Positions 7,988 to 11,014 of a stretch of 64,000 nt of DNA are shown one piece after another. The DNA is from Escherichia coli. GTDB taxonomy: Bacteria; Pseudomonadota; Gammaproteobacteria; Enterobacterales; Enterobacteriaceae. Under the pieces are notes generated by a model. That model ran no database searches, was not told the DNA's origin, and saw nothing but the letters and a program-made list of their open reading frames with translations. Position 1 is the stretch's first letter. Each line of letters opens with the position of its first letter. The stretch lies in assembly GCF_045037415.1 (NCBI RefSeq), contig NZ_CP173438.1; one strand, given 5' to 3'. Position numbers and translations under genes: made by a program.

Positions 7988-10900
7988 ATGACAGTAAAAA
8001 TTTCTGGCGTGCTTAAAGATGGCACAGGAAAACCAGTACAGAACTGCACCATTGTGCTGAAGGCCAGACGAACCAGCAGCACGGTGGTGGTGAACACGGT
8101 GGCCTCTGAAAATCCGGATGAAGCCGGACGTTACAGCATGGATGTTGAGCATGGTCAGTACAGCGTCACCCTGCTGGTTGAAGGTTTTCCGCCTTCACAT
8201 GCCGGGACCATTACCGTCTATGAAGGTTCCAGACCAGGTACGCTGAATGATTTTCTCGGTGCCATGACGGAGGATGATGTCCGACCGGAGGCACTGCGCC
8301 GCTTTGAGCAGATGGTGGAAGAGGTGTCACGTAACGCCTCCGCGGTTGCACAGAATACGGCAGCCGCGAAAAAATCAGCCAGCGATGCCAGTGCATCAGC
8401 CAGCGAGGCGGCAACTCATGCAACCGATGCTGCAGCCTCAGCACGTGCCGCCAGCACGTCAGCCGGACAGGCCGCGTCGTCGGCTCAGTCAGCGTCTTCC
8501 AGCGCAGGAACGGCATCGACAAAGGCCCGTGAAGCAGCAAAAAGTGCTGCTGCTGCAGAGTCATCAAAAAGCGCGGCAGCTACCAGCGCCAGTGCCGCGA
8601 AAACGTCAGAAACGAATGCCGCAGCATCACAAAAATCGGCAGCCACTTCTGCATCCACAGCGACCACGAAGGCGTCAGAAGCTGCCACCTCGGCACGGGG
8701 TGCGGCGGCCTCAAAAGAGGCAGCGAAATCTTCAGAAACGAATGCATCATCAAGTGCCAGTAGTGCAGCTTCCTCGGCAACGGCGGCAGGAAATTCCGCG
8801 AAGGCGGCAAAAACGTCCGAGACGAACGCTAAGTCTTCTGAAACAGCAGCGGGACAGAGCGCCTCAGCTGCGGCAGGTTCAAAAACAGCGGCTGCATTAT
8901 CTGCCAGTGCCGCGTCAACAAGTGCCGGGCTGGCCTCAGCCAGTGCCACCGCCGCCGGAAAATCGGCAGAAAGCGCCGCATCATCCGCTTCAACAGCCAC
9001 AACGAAGGCTGGCAAAGCCACTGAGCAAGCCACTGCAGCAGCGAGGTCTGCTTCTGCAGCAAAAACCTCTGAAACAAATGCAAAGACTTCAGCAGACAAT
9101 GCTGCTTCCTCTAAGGCGGCAGCCGCATCGTCAGCCAGTTCAGCGGCGTCATCGGCATCATCTGCGTCTGCTTCAAAAGATGAGGCGACCAGACAAGCGT
9201 CAGCAGCGAAAGGTAGTGCCACGACAGCAACAACGAAAGCATCAGAGGCGGCAGGCAGTGCGACGGCTGCATCTCAGAGCAAAGTTGCTGCTGAATCCGC
9301 GGCAACGCGCGCTGAGATAGCGGCAAAACGGGCAGAGGATATTGCATCCGCCGTGGCGCTTGAGGATGCGAGCACGACGAAAAAGGGGATAGTACAGCTC
9401 AGTAGTGCGACTAACAGCACTTCCGAGTCACTGGCGGCAACACCAAAAGCCGTTAAGGCCGCGTATGACCTGGCTAGCGGGAAATACACCGCACAGGATG
9501 CAACGACAGCACAGAAAGGGATAATCCAGCTAAGCAGCGCGACCAACAGCACGTCTGAAACGCTGGCGGCAACGCCAAAGGCAGTAAAAGCAGCCAATGA
9601 CAATGCTGAGAAACGTCTGCAGAAAGATCAGAACGGTGCGGATATCCCTGGCAAAGACACCTTTACGAAAAATATTGGTGCCTGCCGTGCCTTCGGTGGG
9701 TCAGTAAGCACAACAACAGGAAACTGGACGACTGCACAGTTTATCGAGTGGCTGGATTCTCAGGGAGCATTTAACCATCCATACTGGATGTGCAAGGGTT
9801 CCTGGTCTTATGGCAATAATAAAATCATTACTGATACTGGCTGCGGTAATATTCATCTCGCCGGAGCTGTCATTGAAGTAATGGGGATAAAGTCAGCGAT
9901 GACGATCCGCATTACCACTCCGACCACATCCAGCGGTGGCGGAACAACCAACGCCCAGTTTACCTATATTAATCACGGAACAGATTATTCACCTGGCTGG
10001 CGAAGGGACTATAACTCCAGAAATAAGCCAACGGCATCAGAGATCGGGGCGCTACCGTCAGGTGGAACAGCAGTATCATCAGTTAATCTGGCTTCAAAAG
10101 GTCGGGTAGCCGCGCTGACAGACAATACGCAGGGGGCAGCAGGTCTTGAGTTATACGAGGTGTATAACAACGGATATCCAACAACGTATGGAAATATCAT
10201 TCACCTGAAAGGGATGACAGCCGTTGGCGAAGGTGAGTTACTCATCGGCTGGAGTGGTACAAGCGGTGCTCATGCTCCGGCATTTATTCGTTCACGACGG
10301 GATACGACCGACGCAAACTGGTCGCCGTGGGCGCAGCTTTACACCTCGGCTCATCCTCCTGCAGAGTTTTATCCAGTCGGTGCACCAATCCCGTGGCCAT
10401 CAGATACCGTTCCGTCTGGTTATGTCCTGATGCAGGGGCAGACTTTTGACAAATCTGCATACCCGAAACTTGCAGCCGCTTATCCGTCAGGCGTGATCCC
10501 TGATATGCGTGGCTGGACGATTAAGGGCAAACCTGCCAGTGGTCGGGCCGTATTGTCTCAGGAACAGGACGGCATTAAATCGCACACCCACAGCGCCAGC
10601 GCATCCAGTACGGATTTGGGGACGAAAACCACATCGTCGTTTGATTACGGCACTAAATCCACGAATAACATCGGGGCGCATACGCACAGTGTGAGCGGTA
10701 CAGCCGCAAGTGCCGGAAACCATACTCATAGTGTCACAGGCGCATCAGCAGTCAGCCAGTGGTCACAAAATGGGTCAGTACATAAGGTAGTGTCTGCGGC
10801 CAGTGTGAATACAAGTGCTGCAGGAGCGCACACTCATAGTGTCAGCGGCACAGCTGCATCTGCAGGTGCTCACGCACATACTGTCGGTATTGGTGCTCAT

Positions 10901-11014
10901 ACGCACTCGGTTGCGATTGGCTCACATGGACACACCATCACCGTTAACGCTGCTGGTAACGCGGAAAACACCGTCAAAAACATCGCATTTAACTATATTG
11001 TGAGGCTTGCATGA
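7988..11014 (+). CDS. stf: Side tail fibre protein (Stf-like)
   Basis: 1008 aa; long Ala/Ser-rich repeat stalk; duplicated KKGI(V/I)[11 protein letters not shown](S/T)[11 protein letters not shown] motif; C-terminal repeated [15 protein letters not shown]xH units typical of fibre tips. Confidence 0.85.

Follow-up and report, generated by a model that had tools for sequence, protein, structure and literature searches.

The closest described counterpart of the fibre analysed here is the side tail fibre Stf of Ur-lambda (orf-401 plus orf-314; N-terminus in PDB 9e7m/9mgh), for which cryo-electron microscopy, cryo-electron tomography, and AlphaFold3 placed residues 1-91 in a collar around the tail, residues 102-393 in a proximal trimeric coiled coil, and residues 394-422 in a hinge, followed by a gp37-like distal part (PMC12617516). 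Seven iron atoms lie along the needle of T4 gp37 and are coordinated by the histidines of HxH motifs (PMC6957217; PMC11705849). In a 64,000-nucleotide (nt) stretch of Escherichia coli DNA (contig NZ_CP173438.1 of assembly GCF_045037415.1; hereafter the window), we analysed an intact stf gene whose product of 1,008 amino acids (aa) resembles both of these fibres and also gpS of phage Mu (Table 1). A first-pass annotation had pointed to a repeat-bearing tail fibre at 8340-10930, a span that corresponds to aa 118-981 and lies wholly within the stf open reading frame (ORF) on the plus strand. The product is very probably a trimeric side tail fibre in which a lambda-type attachment domain leads into a coiled-coil rod of 51 heptads, two hinge units, and a Mu-type shaft, and which ends in a metal-stapled needle of the gp37 type with a distinct receptor loop; Tfa probably assists its folding. 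The repeats in its sequence reflect the periodicity of the structure rather than a tandem array prone to mutation.

RefSeq already lists the protein (WP_106493736.1, "prophage tail fiber N-terminal domain-containing protein"), and its architecture, which is that of the structurally characterised lambda Stf and T4 gp37, is of an ordinary, well-understood kind. The PF08400 profile spans aa 1-134 (E 5.6e-70), as in lambda Stf-type fibres, and by homology to the lambda N-terminal domain residues 1-94 would fix the fibre to the tail tip. Lambda Stf and the window's fibre also share the Ala/Ser heptad coiled coil with AAKTSETNA and KSSETNA motifs, the anchor motifs ...LRR and TT[KR]KGIV that flank the stalk, the Phage_fiber_2 hinge motif, a gp37-like C-terminal collar and needle with a common 11-residue ending, and the gene position in the order J, lom, stf, tfa. 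They differ in stalk length, as orf-401 has 36 heptads and the window's protein 51; the two are otherwise collinear, and the difference is a single 105-aa block of exactly 15 heptads. Lambda Stf further has one hinge repeat instead of two, a middle region of its own where the window's protein has a Mu gpS-like shaft, eight HxH motifs instead of seven, and a different tip loop, and lambda lacks the macro-domain gene that stands between stf and tfa here.

The Ala/Ser-rich tract, which the first-pass annotation had put at about 300 aa and called low complexity, is present but measures 357 aa, and the term undersells a strictly phased structural repeat. Ala accounts for 34-42% and Ser for 14-32% of each 50-aa block. 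When the tract is written as 51 rows of seven, position a is Ala in 47 rows (Val or Phe in the others), position d is Ser in 37 of the 51, and position e is Ala in 36. The Fourier power of Ala in the stalk is 4.17 at period 7, where 2,000 shuffles average 0.23 and never exceed 2.39, and at period 3.5 it reaches 9.45, also far above 2,000 shuffles. Residue identity is ~0.40 at lags that are multiples of 7 and ~0.19 off phase. A protein super-repeat of 70 or 84 aa was considered and rejected, because identity stays flat at ~0.40 across the 7-multiple lags without a clear super-period. The AlphaFold2 model of the full-length monomer has stalk helices at residues 98-278 and 285-457 (predicted local distance difference test score (pLDDT) ~70).

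Substitutions in the stalk were counted between the window and three related phages (PhiR29_1, PhiR68_2, and PhiR34_1). Of the ~115 nucleotide differences, ~73% fall at codon position 3; the ~30 amino-acid changes leave heptad positions a and d untouched and affect e only once or twice. That substitutions spare a and d is the pattern expected of a coiled-coil core. The Ala/Ser heptads are collinear with residues 102-393 of lambda Stf, and the heptad phase, the helix prediction, and this homology together suggest that residues 106-462 would form a parallel three-stranded rod with a core of small residues (Ala at a, Ser at d, and Ala at e). A coiled coil rises by ~0.15 nm per residue. At this rise the rod would be ~53 nm long, which is ~16 nm beyond the 36-heptad rod of lambda.

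The biased composition (Ala and Ser make up ~60%), together with the variable stalk length and the phase-breaking indels that some relatives show (see below), would also be compatible with a disordered low-complexity spacer, in which the sequence is irrelevant and the region serves as a flexible tether of variable length. Such a spacer would not be expected to keep perfect phase over 51 heptads, to hold Ala at a in 47 of 51, to be free of substitutions at a and d, or to be predicted as helix, and the homologous segment of lambda was seen as a rigid trimeric bundle (PMC12617516). We consider a disordered tether extremely improbable and retain the coiled-coil rod.

AAKTSETNA, given by the first-pass annotation as the recurring unit of the stalk, does occur in three exact copies (aa 203, 273, and 357), and degenerate copies are found at aa 247 (KSSETNA) and aa 282 (KSSETAA). 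All of them are spaced by multiples of 7 residues, and the true unit is the 7-aa heptad rather than the 9-mer, even though a 9-mer seen three times is rare (11 of 5,000 shuffles within heptad columns). Tandem Repeats Finder, run at a minimum score of 30, reports just two tiny arrays, a 12-bp unit in 2.1 copies (9015-9040) and a 9-bp unit in 3.2 copies (9140-9168), and no array of period 21 or 27 nt, whereas a search for dispersed repeats recovers families of 6-7 copies with 63-82% DNA identity. Nucleotide identity in the stalk is 0.45 at lag 21 and ~0.36 at other lags. The stalk repeats are old at the DNA level and are not usual tandem DNA repeats, and their copies have diverged too far to slip in the classical tandem-repeat manner.

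Relatives were compared in two sets, a close set of 120 relatives, each representing a 90%-identity cluster, and a diverse set of 150 proteins that share the N-terminal domain, each representing a 50%-identity cluster. In the close set, the stalk measures 357 residues from anchor to anchor in 83 of 120, and heptad phase is kept in 85. One relative that is otherwise identical (P0003) shows a gap of exactly 70 aa between the first two AAKTSETNA copies, and another (P0089) one of 28 aa between KSSETNA and KTSETNA. Fourteen of the 120 have gained or lost 3 aa at aa 392-393, in the 9-bp microsatellite, where a stutter or stammer shifts the heptad register. All ten diverse proteins in which both anchors are present carry whole heptads between them (19, 35, 36, or 51). 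With a hidden Markov model that tracks the register and was trained on the stalk of the window's protein, heptad blocks of 23-346 residues were detected in 67 of the 73 diverse proteins of at least 450 aa, and only three showed a register break. Large changes in stalk length are mostly whole heptads. Strict phase as a rule was rejected, as it fits 10 of 10 diverse representatives but only 85 of 120 in the close set. The proposal that repeat-number variation changes fibre length is borne out by the 19, 35, 36, and 51 heptads and by the 70- and 28-aa deletions, provided that the heptad and not the 9-mer is taken as the unit. Length would evolve by gain and loss of heptad blocks, and specificity by swaps of the tip cassette.

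These variants bear on whether stf could be a contingency locus, in which slipped-strand mispairing often switches fibre length or frame in the manner of phase variation. The 9-bp array with its changes of 3 aa among relatives would fit such a locus, as would the fact that the 70- and 28-aa deletions end in K[TS]SETNA. However, a repeat prone to slippage is not what we find: Tandem Repeats Finder gives no arrays of period 21 or 27 nt, and DNA identity among the motif copies is just 63-82%. Every variant seen is in frame, 83 of the 120 cluster representatives share the 357-residue stalk, and the stf DNA is 100% identical in at least 30 complete E. coli genomes among the matches listed, several of which are labelled O25b:H4-ST131. 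Frequent switching is, in our view, very improbable, and we regard the repeats as the periodicity of a rod. A further reading concerns what rod length is for. The rod could be a length-tuning module, changed in whole heptads with ends at K[TS]SETNA and setting the reach of the tip, and the 51-heptad form, the longest in the sample, could have been selected to reach across thick surface layers, capsule or O-antigen, on hosts like ST131. We offer this as a speculation that is unlikely to hold; if true, stalk length would be a host-range determinant beside the tip cassette.

Downstream of the rod, the duplicated motif that had been placed at about 9380-9600 proves to be two Phage_fiber_2 copies of 107 nt each, which are 74% identical and offset by 132 nt (44 aa). 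The PF03406 profile, which describes the Phage_fiber_2 fibres (P2 gpH, Mu gpS, and lambda Stf), matches the product in two stretches with 121.7 bits against a cut-off of 22, and Pfam also reports one Phage_fiber unit. Eighteen of the 120 close relatives have a single Phage_fiber_2 unit, as lambda does. The two units probably form a hinge, after which, by homology, a distal shaft like that of Mu gpS would follow. The similarity to Mu gpS (PDB 5YVQ and 8JU3) covers aa 491-568 and 539-722, including the Phage_fiber_2 motif and the next domain. Mu gpS differs in its N-terminal attachment domain, and where it has a C-terminal receptor-binding domain of its own the window's fibre carries the gp37-like needle.

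By homology, the fibre would end in a gp37-like collar and needle. Residues 794-1008 align with residues 812-1026 of gp37 (PDB 2XGF), with 82% identity in the collar and ~76% in the needle arms. All seven HxH pairs of gp37 are kept, at aa 866, 898, 912, 948, 962, 971, and 980 (nt 10583, 10679, 10721, 10829, 10871, 10898, and 10925). The three C-terminal repeats of the first-pass annotation are part of this series: two are exact 15-residue copies and one is degenerate, they form a family of three 40-nt DNA repeats, and the full number of HxH motifs is seven. The 14 histidines all align with the iron ligands of gp37 (His883/885, 915/917, 929/931, 966/968, 980/982, 989/991, and 998/1000), and this alignment suggests that iron may be bound here as well. 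Each of the seven HxH layers, with two histidines from each of three chains, would coordinate one metal ion (iron in gp37), and these layers would staple together the intertwined strands of the needle.

The tip is where the likeness to gp37 ends. The loop between HxH 3 and 4 shares only 4 of 29 residues with gp37 932-960, although the flanks are 76-82% identical. Ten of the 11 gp37 receptor contacts (I933 through Y953) differ, and S947 alone is kept, so that the residues by which gp37 contacts lipopolysaccharide (LPS) and OmpC (taken from PMC6957217) are not shared. The fold family is thus shared, while the specificity presumably differs. Among the 120 close relatives, which are otherwise ~90% identical, at least six unrelated classes of this loop occur, which place 33-53 residues between the motifs. 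The idea that HxH repeat number underlies receptor variation did not survive this comparison, as 119 of the 120 keep seven motifs and the loop cassette varies instead; receptor variation thus appears to come from replacement of the tip cassette, not from HxH copy number. In the assembled fibre the loop would form the extreme tip and touch the receptor, and since it is unrelated to the loops of both T4 and lambda, the receptor contact is probably unlike that of T4 with OmpC or LPS. Lambda Stf-type fibres, for their part, bind OmpC and thereby speed up adsorption. The fibre differs from gp37 also in that the remainder of the stf protein is unrelated to it, and in its assembly factor, which is a lambda-type Tfa chaperone rather than gp38 and gp57A; the downstream Tfa probably chaperones folding of the C-terminus. 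C-terminal receptor-binding modules of the gp37/Stf type with a partner assembly protein are widespread in enterobacterial phages and prophages, and the tip cassette of the window's fibre is a distinct one.

Several points weigh against this architecture or against its present use. An Ala/Ser core is uncommon for a coiled coil. Thirty-five of the 120 close relatives have one indel whose length is not divisible by seven (shift of 1-6 residues), so that strict heptad phase is not obligatory and is a strong tendency rather than a rule. The AlphaFold2 model is a monomer with a mean pLDDT of 51 whose helix folds back at residues 279-284, and the trimer and the metal we infer from the comparison with known fibres. 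Fold-back of this sort is the usual tendency of monomer models of long rods. A comparable folded-up artefact for full-length gpStf was remarked on by the authors of the Ur-lambda structure (PMC12617516). Outside the stalk the confidence of the model is low, and we regard the fold-back at 279-284 as artificial. Finally, the central fibre gene J lies in at least three ORFs in the window (3697-4665, 4518-5126, and 5257-7170, all on the plus strand) and is annotated as frameshifted in RefSeq. With J broken, the prophage is probably defective, and the Stf fibre may never be carried on an infectious particle in this host.

The state of J raises the question of whether stf is a recently stranded relic of a defective prophage that has no current function and whose features reflect only phage ancestry. 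The frameshifted gpJ of RefSeq, split into ORFs in the window, is consistent with this. Against it, the 3-kb stf ORF is unbroken and has the same sequence in many ST131 genomes, and the neighbours tfa, lom, and the macro-domain gene are likewise intact despite the broken J. We judge a relic to be somewhat unlikely, and it would bear on present-day use and not on the identity or mechanism of the protein, which we continue to read as a trimeric side tail fibre. Partial stf matches are found in 5,168 of 5,426 complete E. coli genomes, and 638 of these genomes contain a hit over the full length of stf.

The stalk is also the source of long ORFs in other frames (348 aa in another plus-strand frame, and 245, 118, and 109 aa on the minus strand), which the first-pass annotation had rightly called spurious. 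Frames +2, -2, and -3 contain 1, 3, and 3 stops within the 357 codons of the stalk, compared with 18-27 in the rest of stf. A real overlapping protein, encoded at 8274-9320 (plus strand, 348 aa) or 8485-9222 (minus strand, 245 aa), might be argued from the great length of these ORFs and from the persistence of equivalent open frames in the related phages and lambda (200-359 codons in frame +2 and 235-325 in frame -2), and the lambda reference record (NC_001416) carries a hypothetical orf206b antisense to the orf-401 Ala/Ser stalk. Yet the depletion of stops is confined to the stalk, as its composition of GCN, TCN, and ACN codons would yield, and the translations are themselves of low complexity, rich in Pro, Arg, and Gln or in Ala, Asp, and Phe. 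The ~73% of differences from relatives that cluster at stf codon position 3 indicate that selection acts on the stf frame. An overlapping protein is hardly credible; the alternative-frame ORFs are by-products of composition. The lambda orf206b, at 2148-2768 on the minus strand of the excerpt from NC_001416, is an open frame of this composition-driven kind and probably no real gene.

In the identical RefSeq locus, genes for the tape measure and minor tail proteins are followed by gpJ, lom, stf, the macro-domain gene, and tfa; beyond tfa, a reverse transcriptase and a SLATT gene lie on the opposite strand, and then come the chromosomal genes yecD and aspS. The locus is the right arm of a lambdoid prophage, and stf is at the position of lambda stf. 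It stands after J and lom and before the assembly gene, as for a lambda Stf-type fibre, with tfa set apart by a 906-bp insertion that holds the macro-domain gene. The tfa DNA is 95.6% identical to the tfa that directly follows stf in Salmonella phage SPF_0923. In an excerpt of the record of that phage (ON032529, 7324-10025), the sitABCD manganese transporter genes come right after tfa, and the record may hold prophage-flanking bacterial DNA or a cargo island.

The macro-domain gene is a discrete insertion (11016-11921) relative to SPF_0923 and PhiR29_1, and its start overlaps the stf stop codon. The order fibre, macro, tfa is found also in the P2-like phage Chuche, and macro homologues overlap or abut tail-fibre annotations in Gifsy-1 and SEN4/5. 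The family comprises 1,702 homologues and matches phrog_2613, a group with no assigned function. In the family alignment the macro domain is near-invariant and C202, C208, C225, and C232 are conserved, and full-length members end in a tail with 0-4 GAHxH units that resembles the fibre needle. These features suggest that the macro-HxH product may be fibre-associated. An origin of the macro protein as a duplicated Stf C-terminus was considered and rejected, as the BLASTP similarity is weak (E 0.003) and covers the HxH units only. PADLOC gave no hits for the macro protein or Tfa. An AlphaFold2 model of the macro protein, built on an alignment of 28 sequences, was of low quality (mean pLDDT 50, with the C-terminal 115 residues below 50). 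No description of a macro gene beside tail fibre genes was found in the searchable literature, the paper on Gifsy-1 Stf among it. As a side observation, the presence between stf and tfa of a macro-domain gene that has an HxH tail itself is worth following.

On the far side of tfa, the reverse transcriptase (12619-13995, minus strand) matches the PADLOC model RT_UG17 (E 8e-159) and adjoins a gene annotated in RefSeq as SLATT domain-containing (13967-14671, minus strand). The two look like an anti-phage defence pair of the DRT type, carried as a moron at the prophage end beside yecD and aspS.

Table 1. Features of stf and its neighbours in the window, with the basis of each assignment.
Feature	Position	Strand	Basis
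lom, intact, Ail/Lom family outer-membrane protein, between J and stf as in lambda	7238-7837	+	Pfam E 9e-125
stf, side tail fibre gene, intact, 1,008 aa	7988-11014	+	ORF listing; mosaic matches to PHROG tail-fibre families
N-terminal tail-attachment domain, aa 1-94	7988-8269	+	PDB 9e7m "Tail fiber protein", E 3e-47; Pfam PF08400
Ala/Ser-rich stalk, aa 106-462, 51 unbroken heptads, putative parallel trimeric coiled-coil rod	8303-9373	+	Heptad table, periodicity statistics, AlphaFold2 helix, lambda homology
AAKTSETNA copy 1, aa 203-211	8594-8620	+	Left end of the 70-aa deletion in relative P0003
AAKTSETNA copy 2, aa 273-281	8804-8830	+	Right end of the P0003 70-aa deletion and of the P0089 28-aa deletion
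AAKTSETNA copy 3, aa 357-365	9056-9082	+	Within the 105-aa block absent from lambda
9-bp microsatellite TCATCGGCG, 3.2 copies, encoding SSA repeats at aa 385-394	9140-9168	+	Tandem Repeats Finder; variants of +/-3 aa here
Phage_fiber_2 copy 1, hinge motif	9363-9469	+	Pfam PF03406; DNA repeat pair; matches lambda hinge residues 394-422
Phage_fiber_2 copy 2	9495-9601	+	Pfam; DNA repeat pair; absent in lambda and 18/120 close relatives
Phage Mu gpS-like shaft domain, aa 539-722	9602-10153	+	PDB 8ju3 "Tail fiber protein S, S'", E 1.6e-85; PDB 5yvq aa 491-568
T4 gp37-like collar and needle, aa 794-1008	10367-11011	+	PDB 2xgf E 1.3e-86; Pfam Collar aa 798-845
Distal tip loop between HxH 3 and 4, aa 915-947, probable receptor-contact cassette	10730-10828	+	gp37 comparison; cassette classes in relatives
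Macro-domain gene, 300 aa, Cys-rich segment and C-terminal HxH tail; accessory, not part of stf	11011-11913	+	Pfam Macro
tfa, tail fibre assembly chaperone	11922-12506	+	Pfam Caudo_TAP E 1.7e-44; RefSeq annotation

The current understanding of tail fibres is unchanged by these findings, and the gain is mostly one of annotation: apparent low-complexity repeats that spawn false ORFs are a phased coiled-coil rod, and the HxH "repeats" are, as judged from their alignment with gp37, probably fixed metal-binding layers. For the engineering of chimeric Stf for lambda-based delivery, natural stalks run between their anchors in whole heptads (19, 35, 36, or 51), and only a minority of close variants carry indels that break the phase; the hinge may contain one motif or two; and specificity would sit in the small, swappable loop between HxH 3 and 4.

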